The notes beneath the pieces were generated by a model. That model was given only the letters and a program-made list of their open reading frames with translations, searched no databases and had not been told where the DNA came from. A stretch of 37,671 bases of DNA from Thermodesulfobacteriota bacterium (lineage in GTDB: Bacteria; DASVDK01): contig DASVDK010000198.1 in the NCBI GenBank assembly GCA_036381125.1, positions 1 to 37,671 of the forward strand, in the 5' to 3' direction. Shown here one piece after another: positions 15,097 to 35,190 of the stretch (its first letter is position 1; every line of letters begins with the position of its first letter). Made by a program: the position numbers and the translations under genes.

Positions 15097-15128
15097 GGCG
15101 GAGGCGGGAGGCGGCGGGAGAACCAGCG

Positions 15129-16022: not shown

Positions 16023-16041
16023 TGCCATAACGCAGGACACA

Positions 16042-17097: not shown

Positions 17098-17101
17098 GGG
17101 C

Positions 17102-17904: not shown

Positions 17905-17940
17905 CGACTCGGCCGCTTCGCCAAGGCCGACGCCTGGCAC

Positions 17941-18496: not shown

Positions 18497-18528
18497 TTGA
18501 CAGTCGCGTACGACACACGGTATACCGT
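18497..18528 (+). promoter_or_regulatory. sigma70 promoter with overlapping palindromic operator ahead of the flavoprotein-grd run
   Basis: TTGACA (18497), 18 nt, TATACC (18521); perfect palindrome ACGGTATACCGT at 18517-18528 and GTCG-N4-CGAC at 18503-18514; AT-rich element upstream. Confidence 0.6.
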
Positions 18529-18577
18529 CCACCAGACTTCCACGGCGCTTACACGGATTCGGCACCGGAGGGCACGG

Positions 18578-19777
18578 ATGGACTTCTCGCTGACGCCCGA
18601 GCAGGCGGGGCTGGTTGCGCGGGCCCGGGAGGCGAGCCGGGAGTTCCCGGCGCGCGCGCGGGCCTACGACGCGGCCGCCGCCTTCCCGCGGGAGAACTTC
18701 GACGACCTCGAGCGGGCGGGGCTCCTCGCCCTGACGGTCCCGAAGGAGTACGGCGGGCTCGGGTACTGGCAGCCGGGGCGCTTCCTCGCCTACTACCTGG
18801 TCATCGAGGAGATCGCCCGGCGCTGCAGCTCGACCGCGCAGCTCCTCCAGGTGCACTCGCACGCGGTCGGCATGATCGCCGGCATGGGGTCGCCGGCGCA
18901 GAAGGCGCGCTACCTCCCGGAGGTCGTGAAGAAGGGGGCCCTCTTCGCCTCCTGCGGCAGCGAGGCATCGGTGCGGCAGAAGGGGCCGGAGGGGTTCGAC
19001 GCGGTCCTCAGACCCTCCGGCAGCGGGTACACGCTCTCGGGCTACAAGGGCTTCGCCTCGCTCGCGGGCGCGGCCGACTACTACGTGATCTGGGCGCTGG
19101 CGGAGGGGACCCGCCGCATGGCCGACGGCCTCGTCATGGTCGTGGTCCCGAAGGGGGCGCCCGGCGTGCGGCTCGAGAACGACTGGGACACGCTCGGCAT
19201 GCGTCCCACGGTGAGCTGGAGCATTCACCTCGACGGCGTGCCGGTCGAGAAGGAGCAGGTGATCGGCCAGCCGGGCGACTGGGTGCAGAAGGACGCGCGC
19301 ACCTTCACGCTCGCCTTCGCGGCCAACCACCTCGGGACGGCCCAGGGCGTCCACGATCTCGTCCTCGACTTCGTCCGGGTGCGCGAGGACCTCAAGGCGA
19401 ACCCGGTGGTCCAGTGCCAGCTCGCCGAGGCCGACACGCTCCTGGCCTCCTCGCGGGCGCTCCTCCACTACGCGGCGTGGCTCTGGGAGCAGGGACGGGG
19501 CGACGAGGCGGAGCTGGCCTCGATGCGGGCGCTCCACCAGACGAAGCGGACGGCGCTCACGGTGACCTCGCGCGCCTTCGACATCTGCGGCGCGCGGACC
19601 ACCTTCCGGAGCTTCCCGGCGCCGCTCGAGCTCGCCTTCCGGGACGTCCGGACCTTCACGCTCCACTTCCGCGAGGACCGGCTCCTCCAGATGCTCGCGC
19701 AGGCGATCCTCGGGGCGCCGTTCCACTCCAAGCAGAAGTACGGGCCGAAGCTCGAGCCCGTCCAGATGCACGCCTGA
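18578..19777 (+). CDS. Acyl-CoA dehydrogenase-fold flavoprotein, DszC/SfnB-like monooxygenase branch
   Basis: MDFSLTPEQ, GLLALTVPKEYGGLG, LSGYKGFAS, NDWDTLGMRPTVS, FRDVRTFTLH; GGAGG RBS. Confidence 0.85.
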   Translation: MDFSLTPEQAGLVARAREASREFPARARAYDAAAAFPRENFDDLERAGLLALTVPKEYGGLGYWQPGRFLAYYLVIEEIARRCSSTAQLLQVHSHAVGMIAGMGSPAQKARYLPEVVKKGALFASCGSEASVRQKGPEGFDAVLRPSGSGYTLSGYKGFASLAGAADYYVIWALAEGTRRMADGLVMVVVPKGAPGVRLENDWDTLGMRPTVSWSIHLDGVPVEKEQVIGQPGDWVQKDARTFTLAFAANHLGTAQGVHDLVLDFVRVREDLKANPVVQCQLAEADTLLASSRALLHYAAWLWEQGRGDEAELASMRALHQTKRTALTVTSRAFDICGARTTFRSFPAPLELAFRDVRTFTLHFREDRLLQMLAQAILGAPFHSKQKYGPKLEPVQMHA

Positions 19778-19809
19778 GCGTCCCACGGACGACTGACGAG
19801 GTGCCGACG

Positions 19810-21249
19810 ATGAGCTATCCGATCGTCACCGCCGTCGCAAACGTCCTGGCGCACTCGCCAGGTCTCGTCCGGTACGGCTCCCGGACCTCGCGCGACCTCG
19901 CGCGTGATCCCGCGCTCGTTGCCACCATTGCTCCCCATCTGCGCACCTATCCGGAGGCCGTGGGCTACGGGCCGACGCAGGTCTACATCGGCAACGCCGA
20001 CCCCGAGGCTCTGCGTACCGCATCCCGCCCGTGGTTCGCGACGCCCGATCCGACCGCACGGTCCGATGGAGCGTTCGGCGAGGTGATCGGCGAGGCGGAG
20101 CTACTCGGGCTCCTGAAGCTCTGCGACCGCGCCCGGCTGGTGCAGCTCGACGAGGCGACGCTCGCGCGTGCACGCGACGGGCTGGTCGCCCGGGCGCTGG
20201 CTTCCACGGAGGAGTTCCACGCGCTGGCCCCGTCACCCGAGGCCGGCATTGCTCGGGCAGTGGGAAGCGGGGAAGCGCTCCCGCTCGTCCTCGACGACAA
20301 GGTCGTCGGCGCGGTGGCTCGCGGGCACGAGGAGGACGAGGCACTGACCGCCGGCGTCCTGCTGGAGAACCTCGTCGCAAAGGCCACCGGCGTGCTGGCG
20401 CTGCGGCGGCTCTTCGCACAGCTCGAAGGGCGCCTCGCGCCCGGCGACCTCGATTTCGTGCTCGCCGGCTCCGAAGAAGCGGTGGGTGACCGCTACCAGC
20501 GCGGTGGAGGAAATCTGGCCAAGGCGATCGCCGAGCAAGTTGGCGTGAAGCGGGCGTCCGGGTTCGACATCAAAGCGTTCTGTGCTTCGACGCTCTACGG
20601 CGTCTTCAACGCCGCCGCGTTGATCCAGGCAGGCGTCTTCTCCCGCGTGGCGGTCGTGGCGGGAGGATCACTCGCCAAGCTGGGGATGAAGTACCGGGCG
20701 CACGTTGCCAGAGGGATGCCGATCCTCGAGGATGTCGTCGCCGGGATCGCCATCCTCGTCGAGGACGCCAGGAGTGGTAAGGACCGGGGGCCGGCGATTC
20801 GCCTCGACACGGTCGGCTTTCACGGAGCCGGCGCCGAATCCTCCCAGCAGGCTGTGATCGAGGCGCTGGTGCTGGGGCCGCTCGCGAAGGCCGGATACCG
20901 ACTGACCGACGTCGACCGCTACGCGACCGAGATGCACAACCCGGAGATCACCGAGCCGGCCGGCAGCGGCGACGTCCCGCTCGGCAACTACCGGCTGATC
21001 GCCGCGCTGGGCGCCATGCGTGGGCACATCCCGAGGGATGGCATCCAGGATTTCATCGTCCGGTACGGCCTGCCGGGCTATGCGCCGACCCAGGGCCACA
21101 TCGCCTCGGCCGTCTGCTACCTCGGCCACGCCGTGCAGTCCATGCGGGCGGGGAACGTCGGCCGGGTCCTCTTCATGGCGAAGGGGAGCCTCTTCCTCGG
21201 GCGCATGACGCAGTTGTCCGACGGTGTTTCGTTCCTCGTGACAACCTGA
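19810..21249 (+). CDS. grdC: Glycine/sarcosine/betaine reductase component C, beta subunit (FabH-like)
   Basis: LLENLVAKATG, SEEAVGDRYQRGGGNLAKAIAE, AGGSLAKLGM, TEMHNPEITEPAGSGDVP, PGYAPTQGHI, KGSLFLGRMTQLSDGVSF. Confidence 0.92.
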   Translation: MSYPIVTAVANVLAHSPGLVRYGSRTSRDLARDPALVATIAPHLRTYPEAVGYGPTQVYIGNADPEALRTASRPWFATPDPTARSDGAFGEVIGEAELLGLLKLCDRARLVQLDEATLARARDGLVARALASTEEFHALAPSPEAGIARAVGSGEALPLVLDDKVVGAVARGHEEDEALTAGVLLENLVAKATGVLALRRLFAQLEGRLAPGDLDFVLAGSEEAVGDRYQRGGGNLAKAIAEQVGVKRASGFDIKAFCASTLYGVFNAAALIQAGVFSRVAVVAGGSLAKLGMKYRAHVARGMPILEDVVAGIAILVEDARSGKDRGPAIRLDTVGFHGAGAESSQQAVIEALVLGPLAKAGYRLTDVDRYATEMHNPEITEPAGSGDVPLGNYRLIAALGAMRGHIPRDGIQDFIVRYGLPGYAPTQGHIASAVCYLGHAVQSMRAGNVGRVLFMAKGSLFLGRMTQLSDGVSFLVTT

Positions 21250-21261
21250 CTGGAGGGGACG

Positions 21262-21720
21262 ATGAATCTCAAGGGGAAGCGAGTTCTGGCCCTCGGCGAG
21301 CGAGACGGCGTCAACGGCGCCGCGATCGAGGCCTGCGTGCGCAGCGCCGGCGCCGATGTCCTCTACGTGGAGACCCAGTGCTTCGTGTGAACTGCCGCGG
21401 GCGCCATGGACCTTGAGGGTCAAGGTCGAATCAGGCAGGTCGTCGAGCAGGCCGGTACCGACGACGTCGTCGCCGTCCTCGGCGCCAACTCGCCGTCGGC
21501 GGTCGAGATGACGGCGCTCACGCTGAAGAGCGGCGACCCGAGCTACGCCGGGCCGCTGGCGGGCGTGGCGCTCGGGATCCCGTCGTTCCACGTGCTCGAG
21601 CCCGAGATCACCCGGCAGATCGATCCGGAAGTCTACGAGCGTGAGCTGGCGCTTCCCGCGATGGCGATGGACGCGGAGGCGCTCATCGAGCCGGTCAAGG
21701 CCGTTCGGGAGGCGCCGTGA
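21262..21720 (+). CDS. grdA: Glycine/sarcosine/betaine reductase selenoprotein A (Sec at UGA 21388-21390, codon 43)
   Basis: MNLKGKRVLALGERDGVNGAAIEAC...TQCFV-UGA-TAAGAMDLEGQGRI...GDPSYAGPLAGVALG: the GrdA CxxU motif; GGAGG RBS; the ORF track shows only the part after the UGA. Confidence 0.93.
21409..21427 (+). promoter_or_regulatory. SECIS-like hairpin in grdA
   Basis: GACCTTGA-GGG-TCAAGGTC perfect inverted repeat, separated from the in-frame UGA by 18 nt. Confidence 0.75.
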
Positions 21721-22991
21721 TGCGACTCGAGCTAGCCCGCCACGTCGTGCAGTCGCTGGAGTTCGGCAGGCGGACGGCATTCGAGGACGGACGGCTTGTC
21801 GTGGATCGAGACGAGATCCGCGCGCTCGTCCTCGGCGACCCGAACGTCCGCTCGGTCGAGATCGAGATCGTTCGTCCGGGCGACCGCGTGCGCATCGTGC
21901 ACTGCATGGACGTCGTGGAGCCGCGGGCGAAGGCGTCCGGCTCGGGCGAGGTCTTCCCGGGCTTCCTCGGCCCACCGGTTACGGTCGGGAGCGGCCGCAC
22001 GGTCGTCCTGACCGGTGTCGCGATCGTCTCGACCGGGACCTGGCCCGAGCTGACCGACCCCTGGTGGAGCAACCGGGAGGCGATCATCGACATGGGCGGC
22101 TCGGCATCGCGGTACTCGCCATACTCCCGGACACGGAATCTGGTGCTCTCCTTTCGAACGGCGGCCGGGCTTACGCCGGCGCAGCAGGACCACGCCATCC
22201 GGGTCGCCACGTTGCGAGTGGCACGTCACCTGGCGCTCACCGCCCGCGATCGGTCGCCTGACGAGGTCGAAACGTGCGAGCTCGGCCAGGCGCGCGGCGG
22301 ATTGCCGCGCGTGGCATACATCTGCCACCTGGGCTCGCTCGGCGCGCTCTACAACACCTATCTCTACGGTCACTCGGTGGCCGGCACGCTTCCGACGCTG
22401 ATCCACCCCAACGAGCTGTTCGACGGCGCCGTGGTGAACGGGCATCATCGCCTCGCTTCCGAGCGACATCCCACGTACGACCACCAGAACTCTCCGGTGG
22501 CAACGGAGCTGATGCAACGGCATGGCCGGGACCTGAACTTCGTGGGCGTCATCCTCATGCGCAGCCTCGCCGAGCTACCGGAGGAGAAGGAACGGCTCGC
22601 GAGCTACACGGCGAAACTCGCGAAGCTCCTCGGGGCCGAAGCGGCCGTCATCACGCGGCAGGGCGGCGGGCACGCCATCTTCGACCTGATGACGACGTGT
22701 CAGCGCTGCGAGCAGGTCGGGATCAAGACGGCTCTGCTCGTAAACGAGATGGCCGGCCACGCGGGGACCGACGTGAGCATGATCGACTTCGTGCCGGAGG
22801 CCGATCTGATGGTCAGTGCCGGCAACCACGAAGCGCTCATCGACCTGCCGGCCCTGGATCGTGCCGTCGGGGGCGATGTGCTGCTCGGCATGCCCGGCCG
22901 GGCGGTCGATGCGAGGCGCCTGCAACTGCGCTGGGTGTTCGGGGCGAACAGCCAGCTCGGCGTCGGCTGTCTGACGGCCCGGGCCCGGTGA
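21720..22991 (+). CDS. Glycine/sarcosine/betaine reductase component B proprotein (GrdE/GrdG/GrdI family)
   Basis: MRLEL, DVVEPRAK..VFPGF...VGSGRTVVL, EAIIDMGG, PTLIHPNELFDGAVV, TYDHQN.P..EL..RHGRDLNFVGVI, EADLMVSAGN; TGATG overlap with grdA. Confidence 0.9.
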   Translation: MRLELARHVVQSLEFGRRTAFEDGRLVVDRDEIRALVLGDPNVRSVEIEIVRPGDRVRIVHCMDVVEPRAKASGSGEVFPGFLGPPVTVGSGRTVVLTGVAIVSTGTWPELTDPWWSNREAIIDMGGSASRYSPYSRTRNLVLSFRTAAGLTPAQQDHAIRVATLRVARHLALTARDRSPDEVETCELGQARGGLPRVAYICHLGSLGALYNTYLYGHSVAGTLPTLIHPNELFDGAVVNGHHRLASERHPTYDHQNSPVATELMQRHGRDLNFVGVILMRSLAELPEEKERLASYTAKLAKLLGAEAAVITRQGGGHAIFDLMTTCQRCEQVGIKTALLVNEMAGHAGTDVSMIDFVPEADLMVSAGNHEALIDLPALDRAVGGDVLLGMPGRAVDARRLQLRWVFGANSQLGVGCLTARAR

Positions 22992-23002
22992 GGGGGCTCT
23001 CG

Positions 23003-24304
23003 ATGACGATACGTGTCGTTCACTACCTGAACCAGTTCTTCGCAGGTCGTGGGGGCGAGAGCCAGGCGGACTGCGGGATCGAGGTACGAGAAGGCGAAGT
23101 CGGCCCCGGACAGCTCATCGGTCGGCACCTCGGGAACTCGGGGCGGATCGTTGCCACGGTGTCGTACGGTGACAACGCCTTCCACGTCGACCCGGAACGC
23201 TCCGCGGCCGAGGTGGTGAACGCGATTGCCCGGTGCCGCCCGGACGTCGTCGTCGCAGGCCCGGCTTTCGAGGCTGGCCGCTACGGACTTGCATGCGGCT
23301 ACGTCTGCCGAGCCGTTCAAGAGCGGCTCGGCATCCCGGCTCTGGCTGCCATGGCCCCCGAGAACCCCGCGGTCGAGCAGTTCCGGCGCGACGTCTACAT
23401 CATCCCGACGGGTCGTTCTGCGATCGACATGGCCCACGCGGCCCCGCCACTCGCGGCCTTTGCCGTGCGCCTGGCTTCGGGTGCGGAGATCGGCGCCCCT
23501 GAGCAGGAGGGCTACCTCCCCAGGGGCCGGCGTGAGAATGTCTTCGTGGAGCGCAGGGCGGCGGCGCGCATCGTGGACCTGCTGCTTCAGAAGGTTCGCG
23601 GCGAGATCTACCAGACCGAGATACCGGCCCCGGCGTTCGATCGCGTGCCGCCCGCGCCGGCGGTTCAACGGATCGAGGCGGCGACGGTTGCACTGGTGAC
23701 GGAGGGGGGTCTCGTGCCGAAGGGCAACCCCGACCGCATCGAGTCGACCCGACCGACCCGCTGGGGCAGCTACGACATCAGCGGACTGCCCGGCCTGCCG
23801 GCCGGGGACTTCCTGAGCATCCACGCCGGGTGGGCGCCGGAGACGGTCAACGAGAACCCGAACCGAATGGTACCGCTCGACATCGCGCGGGAGCTGGTCA
23901 GGGAGGGCCGAATCGGTGCGCTGCACGAACGGGTCTACGTTGCCGTCGGCAGCAGCTGCACGATCGAGAACGCGCAGCGGTTCGGCCGCGAGATCGCCGG
24001 GCGGCTCAGGTCCGCCGGCGTCCAGGCGGCGATCCTGACGGCGACCTGAGGGACGGGCACACGTTGCGGGGCAACGTTGGCGAAGGAGATCGAACGGGTC
24101 GGCATTCCGACGGCGCTTTTCACGCCGCTGGTCCCACTCGCCCTCATGGTCGGTGCCAACCGCATCGTTCCGGGTAAGGCCGTCACGCATCCGATTGGCG
24201 ATCCTGCGTTGCCGCCCGACGAGGAGACGGCGTATCGCCGGCAGCTCCTCGAGCGCGGCCTACGGGCAATCCGGTCGCCGATCACGGAACAGACGGTCTT
24301 CTAG
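23003..24304 (+). CDS. grdB: Glycine/sarcosine/betaine reductase selenoprotein B (GrdB/GrdF/GrdH family; Sec at UGA 24047-24049, codon 349)
   Basis: RVVHYLNQFFAG, AGPAFEAGRYGLACG, ALVTEGGLVPKGNPDRIES, AILTAT-UGA-GTGTRCGATLAKEIERVGIP...VGANRIVPG; the two ORF-track pieces are in the same frame across the UGA. Confidence 0.92.
24061..24077 (+). promoter_or_regulatory. SECIS-like hairpin in grdB
   Basis: ACGTTGC-GGG-GCAACGT perfect inverted repeat, separated from the in-frame UGA by 11 nt. Confidence 0.75.
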
Positions 24305-24330
24305 AGGTCCATCGACAGGAGGATCAGGCA

Positions 24331-25383
24331 ATGCGTTATGTCGCCTGGCTCATCGTGGCTACCCTCCTCGCCGGCCTCGCGCCGAGCCCGGCTCCCATCG
24401 CTGGCGCCGCGCCGAAGGAAGTCGTCTTCATGTCCTGGGCTGCCGACTACGAGAAGAAGATCCCTGCGCTGATCGGCCCGGGCTTCGAAAAGGAGACCGG
24501 TTACAAGCTTGTCTATGTTGCGGCCACGAACTCGGCGGAGATCGTCGCGCGGGTCAAGGCGCAGGCGAGCGACCCACAGATCGACGTGATCTTCTCGGAC
24601 GAGGGGCCGCAGCTGCTCGCCAGGGAGTTGTGGCAGCCGATCGACGCGAAGTACCTGACGAACATGAACCAGATGTACGACCTGGCCAGGGTGGACGGCA
24701 ACCGCCGTGTGAGGCCCTTCGGCAGCGCCGTGGTGATCCTCTACAACACGGCCGTCTTCCGGGAGAAGGGCTGGGCGGCGCCGACATCCTGGAACGATCT
24801 CTGGGATCCAAAGTACAAGGGGCATGTCATCCTGCCCGAGGGGACGAGTCCGTACGCCTACGGCTTGACCGTCGTTGCCGCGGAACTCCACGGGGGCAGC
24901 GAGAGCAACCTCGGACCAGGGTGGGAGCGGATGAAGCAGCTTGCGCCCAGCGTGCGACTCTTTACGACCGGCTCCGCGCGCCTGGGTGATCTCTTCCGCC
25001 AGGGAACGGCGTGGCTCGCGGTGCACTCGGAAGGCGCAGCCATGCGCCTCCGCAACGCCGGCCTGCCGGTCGGGACCGCCTATCCCAGGGAGGGGGCCAT
25101 CTTCGCGCCGGCGTCCGTCGCCGTCGTGAAAGGGGGGCCGAACCCCGACGGCGCGCAACAGCTCGTCAACTACCTCATGAAGCCCGAGGTCCAGAGGGTA
25201 TGGTCCGAGAACTTCGGCTGGGCGCCGCTCAACCGGAACACCGTGCTCCCGGCCGAACTTGCCGCTCAGTTGAGCTACGGGCCGGAGCGGGTGGCGAGTC
25301 TCAAGGCGCTTGACGGGGAGCGGTACAGTGAGTTCCTTTCAGAATTCATCGAGCGCTGGAATCGAGACGTCCTCTCCCAGTGA
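24331..25383 (+). CDS. ABC transporter substrate-binding protein, PotD/AfuA-like
   Basis: Sec-type signal peptide; FEKETGYK, PTSWNDLWDPKYKGHV, YPREGA, VVKGGPNPDGAQQLVNYL; AGGAGG RBS. Confidence 0.88.
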   Translation: MRYVAWLIVATLLAGLAPSPAPIAGAAPKEVVFMSWAADYEKKIPALIGPGFEKETGYKLVYVAATNSAEIVARVKAQASDPQIDVIFSDEGPQLLARELWQPIDAKYLTNMNQMYDLARVDGNRRVRPFGSAVVILYNTAVFREKGWAAPTSWNDLWDPKYKGHVILPEGTSPYAYGLTVVAAELHGGSESNLGPGWERMKQLAPSVRLFTTGSARLGDLFRQGTAWLAVHSEGAAMRLRNAGLPVGTAYPREGAIFAPASVAVVKGGPNPDGAQQLVNYLMKPEVQRVWSENFGWAPLNRNTVLPAELAAQLSYGPERVASLKALDGERYSEFLSEFIERWNRDVLSQ

Positions 25384-25384
25384 C

Positions 25385-26482
25385 GTGGGAGTGCCCGGGC
25401 TCGCCATCTCCAGGCTCTGCAAGCGCTACGGGCCCCACACGGTTCTGGACGACGTGTCGCTGACGGTGCGGGCGGGTGAGTGCCTCTCGCTCGTCGGGCC
25501 GTCGGGCTGCGGGAAGACGACGCTGCTCAACTGCATCGCCGGCTACGTCCGGCCGGATGGCGGCTCCATTGCCCTGGCAGGACGGCCGATCGACGACGTG
25601 CCCGAGCACCGTCGCGACACGGCGATGGTGTTCCAGAGCTACGCCCTCTTTCCGCACATGGACACGTTCGAGAACGTCGCGTTCGGTCTGCGGATGCGCA
25701 AGGTTCCGAAGGACGAGATTCGTCGGCGGGTCCTTGCCGCCCTGCAGATGGTTCGCCTCGAAGGCAGGGAGAGAAGCTACCCGAACCAGTTGTCCGGCGG
25801 CCAGCAGCAGCGCGTCGCGCTCGCCCGAGCCCTCGTGCTCGAGCCCAAGGTGCTGCTGCTCGACGAGCCGCTGTCGAACCTCGACGCGCGGCTTCGCGAA
25901 GCGATGCGCTTCGAGCTACGCGAGCTCCAGCAGAAGATCCGCATCACCGCGATCTTCGTCACCCACGACATCCAGGAGGCATTCGTCCTCTCGGACCGCG
26001 TGGCGGTCATGAGCGCCGGTCGGATCGAGCAGGTCGGCACGGCGGCGGAGATCTACGAGCAGGCGGCGACCGAGTTCGTCGTCACCTTCGTCGGGCCCTC
26101 GAACGCGTTCGCCGGCAAGGTAGCCGCGCTGGCGAACGGCACCGCCGACGTCCTCGCCGACGGTCTCCGCATTCGTGTTCCGCGCGACGCCCGCGTGACC
26201 CCTGGCGCCGGGGTGAGCGTCTACGTCCGTCCGGAGCGAATCTCGCTCACCGATCGGCCGACCCGACCGAACTCCTTCCCCGGGCGGATCGAGCGAATCG
26301 CCTACCTCGGCGGTTGGATCGACTACCTCGTGCGCGTCGAAGGCCACCTGGTCCGCGTGCAGACGGTGAACCACGGGAAGCCCATCGCGGTCGGTGCTGC
26401 GGTGCGTATCGAGTGGGAGGTCTCGGACGGCATCTGTCACCTCGATCGACAATCAACCGAACGATCGGCTACGCCCCGATGA
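25385..26482 (+). CDS. ABC transporter ATP-binding protein, PotA-like
   Basis: GPSGCGKTT, MVFQSYALFPHM, LSGGQQQR, LDEPLSNLDA; start uncertain (GTG 25385 or 25391). Confidence 0.9.
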   Translation: MGVPGLAISRLCKRYGPHTVLDDVSLTVRAGECLSLVGPSGCGKTTLLNCIAGYVRPDGGSIALAGRPIDDVPEHRRDTAMVFQSYALFPHMDTFENVAFGLRMRKVPKDEIRRRVLAALQMVRLEGRERSYPNQLSGGQQQRVALARALVLEPKVLLLDEPLSNLDARLREAMRFELRELQQKIRITAIFVTHDIQEAFVLSDRVAVMSAGRIEQVGTAAEIYEQAATEFVVTFVGPSNAFAGKVAALANGTADVLADGLRIRVPRDARVTPGAGVSVYVRPERISLTDRPTRPNSFPGRIERIAYLGGWIDYLVRVEGHLVRVQTVNHGKPIAVGAAVRIEWEVSDGICHLDRQSTERSATPR

Positions 26483-27393: not shown

Positions 27394-27397
27394 CGGG

Positions 27398-28222: not shown

Positions 28223-28226
28223 GGAA

Positions 28227-29474
28227 ATGAGGATGGGACAGGTCAGCCTGTGGAATGGGGAGACGAGGCCGATTGCGGCCGCCGTCGACCGCTCGCGCGT
28301 CGTCTCGTTCCTCTCGGAGACGGCCCGCATCAAGAGCTACAGCGGCGACGAGCGGGACATCGCCCGCTTCATGGCCGAGCGGATGCGCGGCCTCGGCCTC
28401 GAGGTGGCGCTCCAGGAGGTCCGCCCGAACCGCTTCAACGCGATCGGCGTCTGGCGGGGGGCCGGGGGCGGGCCTTCCTTCATGTTCAACGGGCACATGG
28501 ACACGAACCCGGCCGGCATGGGGTGGACGAAGGACCCGCTCGGCGGGGTGGTCGACCGCCGCTTCGTCTACGGCATCGGCGTCTCGAACATGAAGGCCGC
28601 CAACGCGGCGGCCTTCCACGCGGTCGAGGCGCTCAAGGCCTCGGGCTTCGTGCCGGCGGGGGACCTGATCCTCGCCTACGTCGTCGGCGAACTGCAGGGC
28701 GGCATCGGGACGTTGAAGCTCATCGAGAGCGGCGTCCGGGCCGACGCGTTCGTCGTCGGCGAGCCGACCGACCTCTCGGCCGTCACCTGCCACGCGGCGA
28801 GCTTCGTCTTCCGCATCCACACCTTCGGCAAGACGCGCCACCTCTCGAAGCGCGAGGAGGGGGTGGATGCGATCGAGAAGATGCTGAAGGTCCTCGCACG
28901 GCTCAAGCGGATGACCTTCAACGGCGCGAAGACCGCGCGCGACCGGGGGATCAACCGGATCAATGTCGGCGTCATGCGCGCGGGGGTGTCGCGCGAGTAC
29001 CACGAGTGGCGGGCGGCGCAGCTCGCCGACGTGTGCACGATCAAGGCGGCGGGGCGGATCGCCCCGGGCCAGACGCTCGAGGGGGCGATGGCCGACCTGC
29101 GGCGGATGCTCCGCGACCTCGGCCGAGAGGACCGGGACTTTCGCGCCGAGGTGGAGCTGGTCGACGACGAGCGGGTCTACATGCCCCCCTTCGAGGTCGA
29201 CCCGTCGGCCCCGGTCGTCCGGGCGCTCGCGGCGGCCCACCGCGAGGTCACGGGGACGAGGCCGAAGATCGGGGCGGTGGCGCCCTACAAGTTCTACGGC
29301 TCGGACGCGGCGCACCTCGCGCAGGCCGGCATGCAGGGCCTCGTCTACGGCCCGGGGGGCAAGTACAACACGATGCCCGACGAGCGGGTCGACATCGCGG
29401 ACCTCGTGAACGCGGCGAAGGTCTACGCGCTCACGATGGCCCGGATGACGGCCCCGGGCGCCCTGGCGCGGTAG
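28227..29474 (+). CDS. M20-family (ArgE/DapE-like) metallohydrolase with atypical metal ligands
   Basis: FNGHMDT, YGIGVSNMK, VVGELQGG, VGEPT, GSDAAHL, YGPG...PDERV. Confidence 0.85.
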   Translation: MRMGQVSLWNGETRPIAAAVDRSRVVSFLSETARIKSYSGDERDIARFMAERMRGLGLEVALQEVRPNRFNAIGVWRGAGGGPSFMFNGHMDTNPAGMGWTKDPLGGVVDRRFVYGIGVSNMKAANAAAFHAVEALKASGFVPAGDLILAYVVGELQGGIGTLKLIESGVRADAFVVGEPTDLSAVTCHAASFVFRIHTFGKTRHLSKREEGVDAIEKMLKVLARLKRMTFNGAKTARDRGINRINVGVMRAGVSREYHEWRAAQLADVCTIKAAGRIAPGQTLEGAMADLRRMLRDLGREDRDFRAEVELVDDERVYMPPFEVDPSAPVVRALAAAHREVTGTRPKIGAVAPYKFYGSDAAHLAQAGMQGLVYGPGGKYNTMPDERVDIADLVNAAKVYALTMARMTAPGALAR

Positions 29475-29480
29475 GCCGCC

Positions 29481-30158
29481 ATGACGGTGGGCCGCATCGT
29501 CAGACCGGAGCCGATGTCGCGGCAGGTCTGCCGCGAGATCCGCGAGGCGATTCTCAGGGGCCGCATCCCGCCCGGTCAGCAGCTCGTCGAGGCGGAGCTG
29601 GCCAGGAGCCTCGGCACGAGCCGCACGCCGGTCCGCGAGGCGATCCTCTTCCTCCAGGCCGAGGGGCTCGTCGAGCCGCTCGCGGGCGGCGGCGTCGCCG
29701 TCAAGGACATCCGGCGGGAGCTCGAGGACATCGTCGGCGTCCGCGAGGCGCTCGAGGTGTACGCCGTGCGGCGCGCGGTCGAGCGGATCGGACCGGAGGC
29801 GATCGCGAGGCTCGAGGCGAACTGCGACGAGTTCGGCGCCCTGCCGCTCAAGGCGGTCGAGCGGCGGGCGCGCCTCAACCGGGAGTTCCACGAGACGCTC
29901 GTCGGCGCCTCCGGCAACGCGCGGCTCCTCAAGATCCTGAGCGACCACCACGAGTACTTCCTCGTGGCCTCCCGCCTCTACGACGAGGAGACGGTGCGCC
30001 GCTCGGCCCCGGAGCACCGGGAGATCCTCGAGGCGGTCAAGGCGAGGGACGCCGCCCGGGCCGAGGCGCTGCTGCGCGCGCACATCACCGGCGCGGCGGC
30101 GTCGATCATCGACGGGGCCGGCCGGCCGGCCGGCGGCAGGCGGGAGAGGATGGGCTGA
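29481..30158 (+). CDS. GntR-family regulator, FadR/FCD subfamily
   Basis: IREAILRG.IPPGQQLVEAELA.SLGTSRTPVREA HTH; FCD motifs REALE, NREFH, GNARL, EHREILEA. Confidence 0.92.
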   Translation: MTVGRIVRPEPMSRQVCREIREAILRGRIPPGQQLVEAELARSLGTSRTPVREAILFLQAEGLVEPLAGGGVAVKDIRRELEDIVGVREALEVYAVRRAVERIGPEAIARLEANCDEFGALPLKAVERRARLNREFHETLVGASGNARLLKILSDHHEYFLVASRLYDEETVRRSAPEHREILEAVKARDAARAEALLRAHITGAAASIIDGAGRPAGGRRERMG

Positions 30159-31330
30159 TGCTGATCCGCTGCGAACTCCTCATCGACGGCGTCTCGACGG
30201 AGCCGAAGCGCCGGGCCTCCGTCCGGGTCGAGGGGGCGAACATCGCCGCCGTGGGCGAGGACCTCGCGCCGGCCCCGGGCGAGCCGGTCCTCGACCTCGG
30301 CGGGTGCACGGTGGTGCCCGGCTTCGTCGACTGCCACGACCATCTCGGCTTCGACGCGGGCGAGCCGAAGGACCGGCTCACCGCCGAGCCCAACGAGTGG
30401 GTCATGGCGAAGATGGCGGCGCGCGCCCGATGGGCCCTCGAGGCGGGCGTGACGACGCTGCGCGACATGGGGGAGAAGAACCACGTCGACCTCCTCGCGC
30501 GCAGGGCGATCGCCGAGGGGCTCTTCCCCGGGCCGCGGCTCCTGGTGGCCGGCCGGAGCATGACGATGACCGGCGGGACGCAGAGCTGGTTCGAGGGGAC
30601 CGAGGTGGACGGTCCCGAGGAGATCCGCAAGCACGTCCGCCGCGAGGTGAAGGCCGGCGTCGACGTCCTCAAGATGTTCGCCACCGGCAGCGCGGCGACG
30701 CTCCGCGTCGACATGCAGCTCCCCTGCTTCACGAAGACCGACATGACGGTGGCGGCCGAGGAGGCGCACCGCGCCGGCAAGCGGCTCGGGGTCCACGCGC
30801 ACAGCCCCATCGCGGTGCGCTGGGCGGTCGAGGCGGGCGCGGACACGATCGAGCACGGCGTCTTCCTCGACGAGGAGGTCCTCGCCCTCATGGCCGAGCG
30901 CCGGGTGCCGCTGATCCTCACGTCCGGGTACTTCCAGGCGGCTGCGGCGCGGACGGACGTCCCCGAGTACATGCGCGACCGGTCGAAGGCGGCGCTCGAC
31001 CGCTACCTCCGGACGATGGCCGCAGCGCGGCGGCTCGGCGTGCCGGTCGCGGTCGGCACGGACGAGAACCACGGCCGGATCGACATGGAACTCGCCTTCA
31101 TGGTGAAGGCCGGCTACACGCCGCTCGAGGCGCTCCGGGCGGCGACGGCCGCCGGCGCGGCGGCGTGCGGCCTCGCGGACCGGACGGGCGCGGTCAGACC
31201 CGGCCTCGCGGCCGACCTGGTGGCGCTCGCGGAGAACCCCCTCGAGCGGGTGGAGGCGGTGGCCCGGGTCGTCCTCGTGATGAAGGACGGGGTCACCTGC
31301 GTCGACCGGACGCGGTCGGCAGGGAAGTGA
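30158..31330 (+). CDS. Amidohydrolase-superfamily metal-dependent hydrolase (prolidase/imidazolonepropionase-like)
   Basis: PGFVDCHDH, GVTTLRDMG, GVDVLKMFATG, VHAH, IEHG, VGTD, G..ADLV; TGATG overlap with the GntR gene. Confidence 0.9.
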   Translation: MLIRCELLIDGVSTEPKRRASVRVEGANIAAVGEDLAPAPGEPVLDLGGCTVVPGFVDCHDHLGFDAGEPKDRLTAEPNEWVMAKMAARARWALEAGVTTLRDMGEKNHVDLLARRAIAEGLFPGPRLLVAGRSMTMTGGTQSWFEGTEVDGPEEIRKHVRREVKAGVDVLKMFATGSAATLRVDMQLPCFTKTDMTVAAEEAHRAGKRLGVHAHSPIAVRWAVEAGADTIEHGVFLDEEVLALMAERRVPLILTSGYFQAAAARTDVPEYMRDRSKAALDRYLRTMAAARRLGVPVAVGTDENHGRIDMELAFMVKAGYTPLEALRAATAAGAAACGLADRTGAVRPGLAADLVALAENPLERVEAVARVVLVMKDGVTCVDRTRSAGK

Positions 31331-31343
31331 AGGAGAGGACGAT

Positions 31344-32372
31344 ATGCGACGACTCGTCCAGGGTGCGCTCGCGGGGCTGGTCGGCCTCGCGCTCGCCGCC
31401 GGCGCGGTCCGCCCGGCGGGGGCGGCGACGGAGATCGTGTTCCTCAGCTGGGGCGGTCTCTACCACGACATCTTCCGGCCGGTGGCCGACGACTTCGAGA
31501 AGGAGACCGGCATCAAGGTGACCTTCGCCGTGCAGTCCGGCGCGAAGGACGGCCTCAACAAGCTCATGGCTCAGCGCAACAACCCGCAGGTCGACGTCTG
31601 GGCCTCGATCGAGGGGACCGCCAGGGCGGCGGCCGAGGCGGGGCTCCTCTCGGAGCTGCGGGTCGAGCAGATCCCGAACCTCGCGGCGATCCCGAAGCAG
31701 TACCTGACGCCGACGGCGGCCGCCATCTGGCTCTCGCCGAGGGGGATCTTCTACCGGAAGGACCTCGTCCCGTTCGAGATCACGAAGTGGGAGGACCTCT
31801 GGGACCCGCGCCTCGAGGGGAAGGTCGGCACGAGCTTCGTCCTCGACACGGGGAACTTCCTCGTCATGGCGGCCCTCATCAACGGGGGGAGCGAGACGAA
31901 CGTCGAGCCCGGCTTCGAGAAGATGAAGCAGCTCAAGCCGAACCTCGCGCTCTTCTACAAGACCGACCCCGAGTCGATCAAGTTCCTCGAGGCGGGGGAG
32001 ATCGCGGTGGCCGGGTGGGGGATCCTGCCGAACGTGTACCGGCACCTCGGCCCCGGCTCGAAGTATCGGTTCGTGATGCCGGCGAAGCCCCAGTTCCTCG
32101 CCAACATCCCGGTCTCGATCGTCAAGGGCCGCGGCGCCGAGCAGGAGGCGGCCGCGCAGAAGTTCGTGAACTTCCTCCTGTCGAAGGGGGCGCAGGAGAA
32201 GATGGTGGCGGTCGCCGGGACGATCCCGGTCAACCCGGCCGCGAAGCCCCCCGACACCATCAAGGACATGATCCCGCCCCTCGAGCACGTCTACCAGGTC
32301 GACTGGGGCGTGGTGAACGCGAACTACAGCCGATGGGAAGACCGCTGGAATCGCGAGGTCCAGACCCGCTGA
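31344..32372 (+). CDS. ABC transporter substrate-binding protein, PotD-like
   Basis: Signal peptide; SWGG, FEKETGIKV, ITKWEDLWDPRLEGKV, AAQKFVNFLLS. Confidence 0.88.
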   Translation: MRRLVQGALAGLVGLALAAGAVRPAGAATEIVFLSWGGLYHDIFRPVADDFEKETGIKVTFAVQSGAKDGLNKLMAQRNNPQVDVWASIEGTARAAAEAGLLSELRVEQIPNLAAIPKQYLTPTAAAIWLSPRGIFYRKDLVPFEITKWEDLWDPRLEGKVGTSFVLDTGNFLVMAALINGGSETNVEPGFEKMKQLKPNLALFYKTDPESIKFLEAGEIAVAGWGILPNVYRHLGPGSKYRFVMPAKPQFLANIPVSIVKGRGAEQEAAAQKFVNFLLSKGAQEKMVAVAGTIPVNPAAKPPDTIKDMIPPLEHVYQVDWGVVNANYSRWEDRWNREVQTR

Positions 32373-33262
32373 TGGCCCCGGGAGCGGCCATGGGGACGGC
32401 GCCGGCGCGCCGTCCCCGCGGCCGGATGGGGCGGGCCGCCCTCCTCGCGGCCCCCGGCGTGGCGATCGTCCTCGCCTTCCTCGCCTGCCTCGCGGCGATG
32501 GTCTACTACAGCGTCCGCCCGAGCCTCGGGATGGCCCGCGTGGGCGACGGGCTGACGCTCGAGAACTACGCGCGCTTCCTCGGGGACGCCTACTACCTCG
32601 GCTACCTCTGGCGCTCGATCCGTGCCGCGGCCGTGAGCACGGTCGTCGCGGCGGTCCTCGGCTTCGCCGTCGCCTACTACATGAGCCGCTCGGGGCCGGT
32701 GGTCCGCCTCGTGACGAGCCTCGTGCTCGTCGTCCAGTTCTTCACGGCGTACGTCGTGCGGACGTACGCGCTCATGCTGATCCTCGGGCGCAACGGGGTC
32801 GTGAACCGGACGCTCCTGGCCCTGGGGCTCGTCGAGACGCCCTTGCCGCTCATGTACAACGAGCTCGGCGTCGTGATCGGCCTCGTGCTGGTCTCGATCC
32901 CGTTCATGGTCTTCCCGGTCTACTCGAGCCTGCTCGCGATCGAGGCGAACCTCGACGCCGCGGCCGAGTCGCTCGGGGCCGGGCCGCTCAGGCGCTTCTG
33001 GACCGTCACGGTGCCGCTCGCCCTGCCGGGCGTCGCGGCCGGGACGGTCGTCGTCTTCCTCTTCACGCTCACGGCCTACGTGATCCCCGGGCTCCTCGGC
33101 GGCGGCTACTTCGACATGATCGCCAACCTGATCTACGACAAGGCCATGGGGGCGCAGGACTACCCCTTCGCGGCCGCGTCGGCCATGGTGACCCTCGTCG
33201 TGACGGCGACGCTCGTCTACGGCCTCCAGCGCGCCTTCGCCGCGCGGATCCGGGGCGCCTGA
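32372..33262 (+). CDS. ABC transporter permease, PotB-like
   Basis: TLENYARF, VVRTYA, GVVN, LDAAAESLGAGPLRRFWTVTVPLALPG, IPGLLGG; alternative start at 32390. Confidence 0.88.
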   Translation: MAPGAAMGTAPARRPRGRMGRAALLAAPGVAIVLAFLACLAAMVYYSVRPSLGMARVGDGLTLENYARFLGDAYYLGYLWRSIRAAAVSTVVAAVLGFAVAYYMSRSGPVVRLVTSLVLVVQFFTAYVVRTYALMLILGRNGVVNRTLLALGLVETPLPLMYNELGVVIGLVLVSIPFMVFPVYSSLLAIEANLDAAAESLGAGPLRRFWTVTVPLALPGVAAGTVVVFLFTLTAYVIPGLLGGGYFDMIANLIYDKAMGAQDYPFAAASAMVTLVVTATLVYGLQRAFAARIRGA

Positions 33263-34059
33263 TGGCCCACCGGGTCGTCCGCCGCCACCCGGTCGCCGCG
33301 CCCGTGGCGCTGCTCGTCCTGGCCGTGCTCTGCCTGCCGCTCGTCGTGATGATCGGCGCGTCCTTCAACCCCGGCACCGAGCAGGTGTTCCCGCCGCGCG
33401 GCCTCTCGCTCCGGTGGTACGCCAACATCCTCGATCGGGACGGCTTCCTCCGGTCCTTCCAGCTCAGCGTGGCGCTCGGCCTCCTCTCGGCCCAGGTGAG
33501 CGTCGCGGCCGGCACCCTGGCCGCGCTGGCCCTCGTCCGCTACCGCTTCCCGGGGCGAGACGCGCTCCTGACGCTGCTCCTCTCGCCGCTCATCGTGCCG
33601 GGTGTCGTCATCGGCATGGCGTTCCTCGTCTCCTTCGCCGCGCTCGGCGTCTTCCGCTCGTTCCCGAGCCTGTTCGTCCTGCACGTCGTCATCACGCTTC
33701 CCTACGCCGTGCGCGTCGTCGTCGGGAGCCTGACCCGCTTCAAGGTCTCCCTCGAGGAGGCGGCGCGGGTGCTCGGGGCCCCGCCGTGGCGGGCCTTCCT
33801 CACGGTGACGCTGCCGGTCATCCGCACCGGGATGGTGGCGGCCGCGATCTTCGCGTTCGTCACGTCGTTCGACAACTTCACGGCGAGCCAGTTCCTCGTC
33901 TGGGACCGGAGCACGCTGCCGGTCGAGATCTACAGCTACGTGCGGACCGAGAACGACCCGACGGTGGCCGCTCTCTGCGCGCTGCTCGTCGCCGGGGTCT
34001 CCGTGGTCGTGGTCGTCCTCGACCGGTACGTGGGGATCGAGGCGTTCACGGGGCGCTAG
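33262..34059 (+). CDS. ABC transporter permease, PotC-like
   Basis: FPPRGLSLRWY, SPLIVPGVVIG, LEEAARVLGA, FVTSFD, TLPVEI. Confidence 0.9.
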   Translation: MAHRVVRRHPVAAPVALLVLAVLCLPLVVMIGASFNPGTEQVFPPRGLSLRWYANILDRDGFLRSFQLSVALGLLSAQVSVAAGTLAALALVRYRFPGRDALLTLLLSPLIVPGVVIGMAFLVSFAALGVFRSFPSLFVLHVVITLPYAVRVVVGSLTRFKVSLEEAARVLGAPPWRAFLTVTLPVIRTGMVAAAIFAFVTSFDNFTASQFLVWDRSTLPVEIYSYVRTENDPTVAALCALLVAGVSVVVVVLDRYVGIEAFTGR

Positions 34060-34067
34060 AGGAGGCG

Positions 34068-35165
34068 ATGGACGGGGTACGGATCGAGATCGAGGACCTC
34101 GGGGTCCGGTACCGAGACGTCCAGGCGGTCAGGGGCGTGTCGCTCGTCGTGGAGCCGTCGGAGTTCGTGGCGCTCCTGGGGCCCAGCGGCTGCGGCAAGA
34201 CCAGCCTCCTCAGGGCGATCGCCGGGTTCGTCGACTACGACGGGGAGATCCGGATCGGCGGGCGGGTCGTCGACGGCGTGCCGGCCCACCGGCGCGGCGT
34301 CGGCATGGTCTTCCAGGACTACGCCCTCTTCCCGCACAGGACCGTCCGGGAGAACATCGGCTACGGCCTCGCCATGCGCCGCACGCCGCGGGCCGAGGCC
34401 GTCGCGCGGGTGGACGAGATGGTCCGCCTCCTCAAGCTCCAGGGCCTCGAGGGGCGCTACCCGGGCCAGCTATCGGGCGGGCAGCAGCAGCGCGTCGCCC
34501 TGGCGCGGGCCATCGCGGTCAACCCGGCGGTGCTCCTGCTCGACGAGCCGCTCGGCGCCCTCGACCGGAAGCTGCGCGAGGAGATGCAGGTGGAGCTGCG
34601 CCAGCTCCAGAAGCGGGTCGGCATCACCGCGGTCTTCGTGACGCACGACCAGGAGGAGGCGCTCGCCCTCGCCGACCGGATCGCCGTCATGAACGGCGGA
34701 CGGATCGAGCAGGTGGCCGGACCGGTGGAGCTCTACGAGCGCCCGGTGAACCGGTTCGTGGCCGACTTCATCGGCCGGTCGAACCTCCTCGCCGCGACGG
34801 TCGTCGAAGCCGACGGACGGCGCGCGGTCTGCCGCGTCGGGGAGGCGGACCGCATCGTCCTCGTGGCCGACGGCGCGTGGACCCCCCTCGCGCCGGGCCG
34901 GACGCTGACCCTCGCGGCGCGCCCCGAGAAGCTCGCCCTCGCCCTCCCGCAGGAGGCGCCCGCCGGTCGCAACGCCCTCCACGGCGTCATCGAGCACGTC
35001 ACCTATCTCGGGATGATCACCGAGGTGCGCGTCCGCCTGGCGACCGGCGACATCCTCGACGTCGTCGAGCAGAACTCCACCGCCGACGGCCGCCGCGCCG
35101 CCCGGCACGTGGGCGACCGGGTGGCCGTGCACTGGAACCCGGCCGACACGGTCGTCGTTGATTGA
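34068..35165 (+). CDS. ABC transporter ATP-binding protein, PotA-like
   Basis: GPSGCGKT, MVFQDYALFPH, LSGGQQQR, LDEPLGALD, FVADFIG; AGGAGG RBS. Confidence 0.93.
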   Translation: MDGVRIEIEDLGVRYRDVQAVRGVSLVVEPSEFVALLGPSGCGKTSLLRAIAGFVDYDGEIRIGGRVVDGVPAHRRGVGMVFQDYALFPHRTVRENIGYGLAMRRTPRAEAVARVDEMVRLLKLQGLEGRYPGQLSGGQQQRVALARAIAVNPAVLLLDEPLGALDRKLREEMQVELRQLQKRVGITAVFVTHDQEEALALADRIAVMNGGRIEQVAGPVELYERPVNRFVADFIGRSNLLAATVVEADGRRAVCRVGEADRIVLVADGAWTPLAPGRTLTLAARPEKLALALPQEAPAGRNALHGVIEHVTYLGMITEVRVRLATGDILDVVEQNSTADGRRAARHVGDRVAVHWNPADTVVVD

Positions 35166-35190
35166 CTCGCCCCGATCAGGCTCGTCCCCC

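Follow-up and report, generated by a model that had tools for sequence, protein, structure and literature searches.

A variant Grd-type selenoprotein cassette within a putative composite catabolic operon of a Thermodesulfobacteriota bacterium

The stretch of DNA analysed here (the window, 37,671 nucleotides) comes from a soil bacterium of the Thermodesulfobacteriota and contains a run of 16 genes, all on the + strand, whose content and order in Pfam and NCBIfam profile searches are as an earlier, sequence-only reading had described them (Table 1). The genes are spaced by −4 to +32 nt, with no terminator-like sites on the + strand between them. A single clear promoter had also been proposed ahead of the run. 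A perfect TTGACA does lie at 18497, and this −35 element and its surroundings are kept in a genome of the same genus, G001 (89% over 18475-18568), but the site is weaker than claimed, with only a −10-like TATACC; it fails the criteria of a consensus scan, which returned 0 promoter-like sites in 17900-35600. The flavoprotein probably starts at the ATG at 18578, not at the TTG at 18497.

Table 1. Positions of the genes and other features of the run within the window
Feature	Position	Strand	Evidence or remark
Promoter-like site	18497-18526	+	−35 TTGACA, 18 nt spacer, −10-like TATACC
ACAD-fold flavoprotein	18578-19777	+	Pfam Acyl-CoA_dh N, M and C domains; first gene of native operon
grd and importer 1 block, 8.5 kb	19781-28273	+	no counterpart in genus-mate G001
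grdC (protein C beta subunit, KAS-III-like)	19810-21249	+	NF040746 540.7 bits (cut-off 450)
grdA, selenoprotein A	21262-21720	+	PF04723 180.2 bits; NF040748 185.9 bits (cut-off 130)
grdE′ (B component subunit)	21717-22991	+	PF09338 397.8 bits
grdB′ (selenoprotein B-like)	23003-24304	+	PF07355 434.3 bits
SECIS-like element of grdB′	24050-24087	+	Rfam SECIS_4
SBP of importer 1 (PotD/PhnS-like)	24331-25383	+	SBP_bac_8 110 bits
Importer 1 ATPase; permeases	25385-26482; 26479-27393, 27398-28222	+	ABC_tran and TOBE_2; BPD_transp_1
M20 (ArgE/DapE-like) hydrolase, native operon	28227-29474	+	Pfam M20
GntR/FCD regulator, native operon	29481-30158	+	profile match
Amidohydrolase, native operon	30158-31330	+	Amidohydro_1 141.7 bits
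ABC importer 2, native operon	31344-35165	+	SBP 31344-32372; permeases 32372-33262, 33262-34059; ATPase 34068-35165

The best NCBIfam matches of the flavoprotein (AcrC 143, SfnB 131 and DszC 110 bits) fall far short of the cut-offs, and its PDB matches include both DszC-type monooxygenases and true ACADs, so that its earlier designation as an oxygenase is not established. The M20 protein reaches 190.9 bits with TIGR01910 (cut-off 217.6), the GntR/FCD regulator 117.7 bits with a PhnR-like model (cut-off 271.5) and the amidohydrolase 243.4 bits with an Xaa-Pro dipeptidase model (cut-off 500).

The selenocysteine of GrdA, Sec43, is encoded by the TGA at 21388-21390 within the motif CFVUTAAGAMD, and a hairpin follows this codon (−26.6 kcal/mol, z −2.45). 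GrdB′ is full length with Sec349 at the canonical position (TGA at 24047-24049), right after which lies a SECIS_4-like element scoring 30 bits, below the Rfam gathering score of 38 (E 0.0027). GrdB′ and GrdE′ miss every NCBIfam equivalog cut-off, whether for the glycine, sarcosine, betaine or fluoroacetate enzymes. Specifically, GrdB′ scores 501.6 bits with GrdF (cut-off 800), 465 with GrdB (602.2) and 434.1 with GrdH (775), while controls exceed the same thresholds (L034 and L011 with 737.9 and 626.9 for GrdB; L107 and L108 with 816.5 and 797.3 for GrdH). Two metagenome proteins are 75% identical to GrdB′ and the next best match only 51%. Together with these two proteins, P0004 and P0005, it forms a clade (support 100) outside those of GrdB and GrdH, nested in a 14-row clade (support 96-98) and separate from the controls for GrdB and GrdH. 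Several motifs are altered: residue 55 is Tyr, whereas 136 of 137 aligned rows show Cys here; ‘IHAG plus aromatic residue’, common to two verified GrdH proteins (IHAGF), is found where glycine-type GrdB has HGGYD; the downstream motif is VGSSCT(I/V)ENAQRF as opposed to VGTGTTQAEA of GrdH; and one of two cysteines is missing from the motif after Sec (UxxGxxC). The missed cut-offs, separate clade and changed motifs bear out the view that this is an altered, non-canonical GrdB.

GrdE′ matches GrdG best (303.5 bits, cut-off 780), followed at a distance by FarE (169.2, cut-off 675), and none of 1.84 billion cluster representatives exceeds 50% identity to it. It has NGHHRLAS at the place of the canonical SGNCVSAC and hence lacks the processing cysteine from which the pyruvoyl group forms, in agreement with the altered active site noted previously. 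Among the 150 GrdE-like cluster representatives nearest to GrdE′, just 9 retain this cysteine and, judged from these sequences, its loss is not special to the locus. The same cysteines are missing from FarE and GrdI, neither of which is a proprotein, according to a study of fluoroacetate reduction (PMC10838667). The missing cysteine suggests that the carboxymethyl group of the substrate is bound to a good leaving group and, with the altered GrdB motifs, makes the onium or other leaving-group substrate suggested by the sequence-only reading a reasonable proposal.

The glycine reductase complex of Clostridia, reportedly the subject of Andreesen 2004, resembles the cassette in several respects: GrdA (CxxU) and GrdC pass their equivalog cut-offs, GrdB′ is full length with a canonical Sec, and the overall logic of carboxymethyl-selenoether transfer would be the same. 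However, the cassette differs in that GrdE′ has no pyruvoyl-forming cysteine, GrdB′ lies below the glycine-model cut-off with several conserved motifs altered, the gene order is C-A-E-B rather than E-A-B-C-D, thioredoxin genes are not adjacent, and the host can respire oxygen and has no GrdD. The clostridial complex comprises GrdA, GrdB-GrdE and GrdC-GrdD, as outlined in a published account (PMC13188914). Fluoroacetate reductase, FarEB, of Cloacibacillus porcorum is likewise presented, in the corresponding passages, as a substrate-specific B variant that feeds shared GrdA and GrdC, with the processing cysteines missing in FarE as in GrdE′, and with no CxxC after Sec in FarB, comparable to the Cys missing from GrdB′ (PMC10838667). 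Unlike FarEB, the cassette brings its own GrdC, GrdA and ABC importer, GrdE′ attains 169 bits where the FarE model demands 675, and the host belongs to a different phylum.

The sequence-only reading had found no grdD, trx or sel genes in the window. The absence of grdD extends to the whole 96%-complete genome (best NF040747 score 21.9 bits, cut-off 350; 0 tblastn hits with verified GrdD), whereas selA, selB, selD and trxB are present on other contigs; no tRNA-Sec could be identified in the assembly. Lack of grdD is also no peculiarity of this locus but is general to grdE-B-C-A type clusters outside the Firmicutes: GrdD was above cut-off in 0 of 5 other genomes tested that carry such a cluster, and among 24 grdC loci without grdD, the sequence continues for at least 1.5 kb downstream of grdC in 16, and grdA comes next in 15 of those 16. 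Two further grd clusters and several haem-copper oxidases are encoded in the genome. With its capacity for oxygen respiration, the host is unlikely to live by classic Stickland fermentation, as had been anticipated.

Two other accounts of the cassette need to be weighed against these features. It could be an ordinary, if divergent, glycine betaine reductase, GrdHI-like in function but with another importer; like GrdI, GrdE′ would be unprocessed, with its cysteines missing, ‘IHAG plus aromatic residue’ is shared with GrdH rather than with glycine-type GrdB, and a leaving-group mechanism independent of a Schiff base is likely in both. We nevertheless consider this improbable, because GrdB′ reaches just 434 of the 775 bits required by the GrdH model, falls outside the GrdH clade and has a downstream motif unlike that of GrdH, and because importer 1 is PotD/PhnS-like and no betaine-type transporter is encoded in the window. 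The other account, that the cassette is a recently acquired copy that is non-functional or decaying, draws on the unique Tyr55, which at an otherwise invariant Cys position could impair GrdB′ and whose codon recurs in a contig from another study, on the missing GrdD and tRNA-Sec, and on the lack of any RNA dataset among the listed runs with the cassette. This seems to us less probable still, given that 8 of 8 reading frames are intact, both TGA codons are exactly at canonical Sec positions and are followed by SECIS-like structures, GrdC and GrdA clear their equivalog cut-offs, cassette pieces identical to the window were also obtained from runs of two further studies (three studies in all), and such clusters are retained in other GrdD-less genomes.

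On balance, we favour the view that the 16-gene run is a composite of two systems, based on comparison with G001, the only genus-mate genome, so that the indel is inferred from two genomes. Contig C173 of G001 matches the window over 18496-19780 (96.0%) and 28274-34516 (95.9%); homology breaks at 19780 and restarts at 28274, the two segments lying about 30 nt apart on C173. In G001 the genes for M20, GntR, amidohydrolase and importer 2 come immediately after the flavoprotein gene, with no grd gene between, and the M20 start overlaps the flavoprotein stop (ATGA). Flavoprotein identity is 95-96%, M20 is about 96% identical at the nucleotide level from codon 17 on (the first 16 codons differ), the amidohydrolase has a 97% identical protein on an 8586-nt G001 contig, and importer 2 is matched at 96% up to 34516, where the G001 contig ends. 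The 95%-complete G001 genome yielded no GrdB′ (best match 48%). GC3 steps sharply at both borders, from 0.967-0.987 in the 8 flanking operon genes (flavoprotein 0.98; importer 2 genes 0.97-0.99) to 0.816-0.876 in the 8 cassette genes. Logan contigs from the run that best covers the window span the two borders of the grd block (19409-20991 and 25864-28647) with 0 differences, so the arrangement is not a binning artefact. Neither flanking repeats nor mobility genes were found at the junctions.

The original proposal, by contrast, was of one uptake-and-degrade system, a co-evolved run of 16.7 kb in which a single substrate reaches the Grd-type reductase through the two importers, the two hydrolases and the flavoprotein. 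The tight, co-directional packing and the lack of terminator-like sites are in its favour, as is a published parallel, the riboflavin-induced finHI neighbourhood of Clostridium scindens, in which Grd B-type genes are, in the portion of the preprint concerned, an optional add-on to a catabolic cluster, with natural variants with and without them (bioRxiv 10.64898/2026.02.13.705874); the finHI hosts are Firmicutes and the substrate there is a flavin derivative. We regard a single system as unlikely, since the operon is complete without the grd block in G001 and GC3 jumps at both borders of that block. Moreover, the neighbourhood does not recur: no ACAD, M20 or SBP gene is found at any of 80 related grdB loci, with a weak amidohydrolase match at one and a weak GntR match at two, and among the 75 amidohydrolase relatives listed none is on a contig sized like those with the 75% GrdB′ relatives. 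The sequence-only interpretation as a whole is partly supported. Within the composite reading, a deletion in G001 instead of an insertion here would be the alternative polarity. The cassette's GrdC and GrdA share 75-83% identity with copies that the genome encodes on contig C118 (75.5% for the second GrdC encoded there), so some of the block could have arisen by duplication within the genome instead of coming from outside.

In the composite reading, the older, native unit would comprise the ACAD-fold flavoprotein, M20, GntR, amidohydrolase and the PhnS/PotD-like importer 2, and would act on some amide or N-acyl compound. The 8.5 kb cassette, made up of grdC, grdA(Sec), grdE′, grdB′(Sec) and the genes of its own PotD-like ABC importer, would have entered precisely at the boundary of the flavoprotein and M20 genes, probably after horizontal transfer out of a related lineage, and has probably been co-transcribed with the host operon since. 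Its partnership with the hydrolases would thus be recent and non-conserved.

Importer 1 appears to belong with the reductase. Its SBP has weak PotD and PhnS matches and very few relatives (in 5.8 billion, 6 proteins reach E ≤ 1e-70, itself included); one adjoins the C358 grd cluster and another is on a 4370-nt contig, equal in length to the contig that carries one 75% GrdB′ relative. This linkage to the same GrdB type elsewhere supports the idea of a dedicated importer. P0005, the second 75% relative, is on a 42,933-nt contig, and no SBP1-like or amidohydrolase-like partner was found on a contig of that size, so the link is not universal. Nothing else in the genome closely resembles the importer 1 ATPase and permeases (≤59% identity).

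Collectively, these features suggest a reaction in which importer 1 would take up X-CH2-COO−, where X is a good leaving group such as a quaternary ammonium or sulfonium. With the cysteine absent from GrdE′ a pyruvoyl group is impossible, and no Schiff base would form; on the model of betaine and fluoroacetate reductases, Sec349 of GrdB′ would instead displace X, and the carboxymethyl group would then move to Sec43 of GrdA. GrdA would be reduced by a thioredoxin system from another part of the genome, and the acetyl group would be transferred to GrdC as a thioester and, as there is no GrdD, probably be released as acetyl-CoA or acetate rather than acetyl phosphate. Judged by its sequence, the cassette is a rare variant of the selenium-dependent glycine reductase machinery.

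The source genome (G000) is a metagenome-assembled genome of 4.33 Mb in 382 contigs, 96% complete and with a G+C content of ~70%. Between 18497 and 35165 of the window, 16 genes were called, all on the + strand with intergenic gaps of -4 to +32 nt, and their identities, assigned with Pfam and NCBIfam, bear out the gene content and order described in the sequence-only reading (see table). The promoter that had been called clear is less secure, since a perfect -35 box at 18497 is coupled to a weak -10 box and a consensus promoter scan returned no sites. GrdA has the CxxU motif (CFVU) of glycine-reductase selenoprotein A and passes the NF040748 model. A stable hairpin (z -2.45) lies 3' of the grdA TGA, and the TGA of the gene for GrdB' is followed by a SECIS_4-like element (30 bits, E 0.0027) that falls under the Rfam gathering score. 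A separate + strand run at 6815-15905 encodes aconitase X (AcnX), a sugar-type ABC importer, an aldehyde dehydrogenase, a 3-hydroxyisobutyrate-dehydrogenase-like protein and a GntR/UTRA regulator.

Features of the gene run in the window and the two further grd clusters of the source genome
Feature	Position	Strand	Domains, scores or content
ACAD-fold flavoprotein	18578-19777	+	Acyl-CoA_dh N, M and C domains
GrdC	19810-21249	+	540.7 bits against a cut-off of 450
GrdA	21262-21720	+	NF040748, 185.9 bits against a cut-off of 130; Sec43 in CFVUTAAGAMD
GrdE-like (GrdE')	21717-22991	+	PF09338, 397.8 bits
GrdB-like (GrdB')	23003-24304	+	Sec349
ABC importer 1	24331-28222	+	PotD/PhnS-like binding protein (24331-25383), ATPase, two permeases
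M20 hydrolase	28227-29474	+	Peptidase_M20
GntR/FCD regulator	29481-30158	+	GntR and FCD domains
Amidohydrolase	30158-31330	+	Amidohydro_1
ABC importer 2	31344-35165	+	binding protein, two permeases, ATPase
Second grd cluster	contig C118 (L007), 1492-12745		grdE-grdB-grdC-grdA, then IclR, CoA-transferase subunits, TctA/TctC
Third grd cluster	contig C358 (L008), 215-16272		DUF1989, TAXI-TRAP transporter, grdE-grdB-grdA, SBP1-like protein without permeases, GntR/FCD, CoA-transferase A and B, xanthine-dehydrogenase-family molybdoenzyme

In our reading, the run consists of an older operon of flavoprotein, M20, GntR, amidohydrolase and importer 2 genes into which a cassette was inserted; the single long co-evolved system that had been proposed is not supported. 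GTDB offers one genus-mate genome (G001), all remaining relatives being domain-level kin only. Contig C173 of G001 (8586 nt) matches the window at 18496-19780 (96.0%) and 28274-34516 (95.9%), and on that contig the two matching stretches lie ~30 nt apart, the intervening 8.5 kb, from grdC through the second permease of importer 1, being absent. At the G001 junction the flavoprotein TGA and the M20 ATG overlap as ATGA, and the first 16 M20 codons in the window differ from those of G001. A search of G001 (95% complete) gave no GrdB' at another site, its best match being 48%. GC3 changes exactly at the block borders, from 0.967-0.987 in the eight flanking operon genes to 0.816-0.876 in the eight block genes. 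ACAD, M20 or binding-protein genes are present in none of the 80 related grdB loci compared. Both borders are crossed with no differences by Logan contigs of the best-holding run, and short, identical pieces of the block also occur in runs of two other studies; none of the 19 runs listed is an RNA run. Loss of the block from G001 is a less likely alternative to insertion, since composition steps at the borders and the two genes are coupled through ATGA in G001. No direct or inverted repeats of at least 10 nt common to both junctions and no mobility genes at the borders were found, and the form joining 19780 to 28274 is not among the 15 joints listed from the reads, which contain 226 further joints. 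The donor of the inserted cassette was probably a related lineage, as suggested by the 75-83% identity of its GrdC and GrdA to the copies on C118. Just upstream of 18475, where synteny with G001 starts, lies an AbiEi/AbiEii type IV toxin-antitoxin pair (16000-18304) with a GC3 of 0.84 versus 0.96-0.98 in its neighbours.

The proposal that the reductase is non-canonical holds up well. GrdB' scores under the cut-offs of the glycine (TIGR01917, 465 bits against 602.2), sarcosine (NF040794, 501.6 against 800) and betaine (NF040795, 434.1 against 775) equivalog models, none of which is passed by any of the three GrdB paralogues of G000; the GrdB controls L034 and L011 pass TIGR01917 with 737.9 and 626.9 bits. 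Only two relatives at 75% identity (P0004 and P0005, both cut at the Sec codon) were found among 5.8 billion clustered proteins, the third best being 51% identical, and the best match in a one-genome-per-species set is ~53%. Trees built with FastTree (137 rows) and IQ-TREE in quick mode (50 rows) agree in uniting GrdB', P0004 and P0005 with a support of 100. This trio is nested in a clade of 14 rows from high-GC groundwater and soil lineages (support 96-98), which also holds the other two paralogues of G000 and stands apart from the rows passing the GrdB and GrdH models. None of five genomes examined for a verified GrdF has a match over the NF040794 cut-off, and the sarcosine clade is represented solely by its published motif. 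The Grd tree of PMC9751293 (Fig. S6) might already show the GrdB' clade. Within the 14-row clade, the Actinomycetota MAG protein P0053 carries Cys at the Sec position and Ser instead of the Cys that follows (GTCGTGSRSG).

Motifs of GrdB' differ from those of GrdB and GrdF. Nobu et al. (PMC9751293) describe the motifs AHGGxD / IHGGYDR and TxGNxTxV / TTGTGT as fully conserved in GrdB and GrdF, IHGGYDR and TTGTGT being those of sarcosine reductase; GrdB' has IHAGWAP in place of the former and VGSSCTIENAQRF (with VGSSCT) in place of the latter, and its GPAFEAGRYG is also altered. The Sec motif, UGTGTRC, is of the form UxxGxxC, whereas that of glycine reductase is UxxCxxC; the U+3 position varies within the family, with Cys in 104 and Gly in 15 of the 137 rows. 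Tyr55 (23165-23167), at the CGD motif, is unique, the other 136 rows having Cys. Both 75% relatives keep this Cys, and the same Tyr55 codon is present in a contig of another study.

GrdE' is also unusual. Its NGHHRLAS aligns to the canonical SGNCVSAC (L034, L016), with both self-cleavage cysteines missing. According to PMC10838667, these cysteines serve the self-cleavage of GrdE to a pyruvoyl group, FarE (fluoroacetate reductase) and GrdI (betaine reductase) have the same cysteine loss, and the loss is tied to substrates for which no Schiff base is required. GrdE' falls under the cut-offs of the sarcosine (NF040793, 303.5 bits against 780) and fluoroacetate (NF053623, 169.2 against 675) models. 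Among 1.84 billion, there is no cluster representative with more than 50% identity to it, and only nine of the 150 nearest representatives have Cys at the processing column, most having Tyr or Phe. By these counts, GrdE' is one rare branch within an extensive and uncharacterised radiation of B subunits that are not processed.

Protein C of glycine reductase consists of GrdC and GrdD, whereas here GrdC was found and GrdD is absent from a 96%-complete genome: the best match to the GrdD family model in G000 is 21.9 bits against a cut-off of 350, and a verified GrdD (588.6 bits) used as tblastn query gave no matches. Among the 80 related loci, grdC is present in 55 and is directly followed by grdD in 31 of these (E-A-B-C-D, E-B-A-C-D and similar orders). 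Sixteen of the 24 grdC loci without grdD extend at least 1.5 kb downstream of grdC, and in all of them except the Bathyarchaeota locus L087 the next gene is grdA (15/16). Moreover, GrdD over the cut-off was found in none of five genomes with E-B-C-A clusters (L011, L041, L043, L055 and L064 in G041-G045; an Armatimonadota, three 'Deltaproteobacteria' and a Dehalococcoidaceae genome). Because of this C-A order and the five genomes without GrdD, the absence of GrdD characterises the cluster type as a whole rather than this particular locus, and the weight given to it in the sequence-only reading is not supported. No discussion of a GrdD-less cluster type was found in the literature searched, though one may already exist in print. 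A CoA-transferase was considered as a general stand-in for GrdD and rejected; both other grd clusters of G000 have CoA-transferase genes nearby, but only one of the 80 related loci does. In the Desulfobaccales loci L055 and L060 the order is E-B-E-B-C-A, so that two different B pairs accompany one grdC-grdA, and the C118 type has its closest relative in the first of these pairs.

The wider search of the genome for selenium and redox genes, suggested along with that for grdD, located selA, selB, selD and trxB on other contigs. It did not find a tRNA-Sec in the assembly: ARAGORN called 53 tRNAs, none of them Sec, and the best Rfam tRNA-Sec matches (46.4 and 43.1 bits; gathering score 47) are tRNA-Ser. 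The selD gene (C156, 487-1425) has one in-frame TGA, so that its product, selenophosphate synthetase, is probably a selenoprotein too. G000 carries three or more strong haem-copper oxidase genes, which makes a strictly fermentative Stickland lifestyle unlikely.

Relatives of the binding protein of importer 1 (SBP1) are rare, only five being found at E<=1e-70. One of these, 67% identical, is the binding protein beside the grd cluster on C358, and the SBP1-like protein P0216 and the GrdB' relative P0004 are each on a 4370-nt contig. This supports a dedication of importer 1 to the reductase. For P0005, on a 42,933-nt contig, no partner on a contig of that size was found among 6 SBP1 and 75 listed amidohydrolase matches. 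The C118 cluster, which has an orthologue in G001, encodes a GrdB with UGSGTRS, having no Cys after Sec, and a GrdE without the processing Cys. Genes for xanthine-dehydrogenase-family molybdoenzymes recur beside GrdB genes at L059, L024, L025, L056 and on C358, which gives a hint of a connection with the breakdown of N-heterocycles; L059, L024 and L056 fall in the same 14-row clade as the C358 paralogue, and L025 falls outside it. The neighbours at L059, L024 and L056 (xanthine-dehydrogenase-family, UbiD, M19 and metallo-beta-lactamase genes) are unlike those in the window and were set aside as substrate clues.

Glycine betaine was considered as a substrate. GrdB' shares 'IHAG + aromatic residue' with two verified GrdH proteins, and the unprocessed GrdE-type partner without the two cysteines that marks betaine reductase is found in GrdE'. 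This loss is not, however, betaine-specific, because it is common to FarE and to 141 of the 150 nearest cluster representatives of GrdE', and GrdB' does not group with the verified GrdH L107 and L108 in their clade. It is improbable that glycine betaine is the substrate. A further possibility, less likely than not, is that the cassette encodes a self-contained, mobile and GrdD-independent selenoprotein reductase for a carboxymethyl-onium compound other than glycine, sarcosine or betaine, with a private PotD-type importer and release of the acetyl group as acetyl-CoA or acetate in place of acetyl phosphate, in an oxygen-respiring soil host; it would then be one visible tip of a large, uncharacterised non-pyruvoyl B-component radiation. 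What is observed comprises the parts list, the loss of the pyruvoyl cysteine, the lack of GrdD and the presence of selenocysteine and thioredoxin-reductase genes; the steps of the most likely mechanism are inferred. Importer 1 would take up X-CH2-COO- bearing a good leaving group, X would be displaced by Sec349 of GrdB', and the carboxymethyl group would pass to GrdA. Thioredoxin would then reduce GrdA, and GrdC would form an acetyl thioester that leaves as acetyl-CoA or acetate.

In textbooks, Grd-type selenoenzymes belong to the Stickland metabolism of strict anaerobes, and three or four substrates are known for them. Here the Grd machinery comes as a cassette, complete with an importer of its own, in a soil lineage capable of oxygen respiration. 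The run is also a cautionary case, in that a tight, co-directional set of genes need not equal one pathway, and the near-identical genome pair with and without the cassette provides a clean natural comparison. A B component without assigned specificity, together with the absence of GrdD, poses the questions of what is cleaved, how acetyl is released and how energy is conserved in GrdD-less systems, which are widespread outside the Firmicutes.
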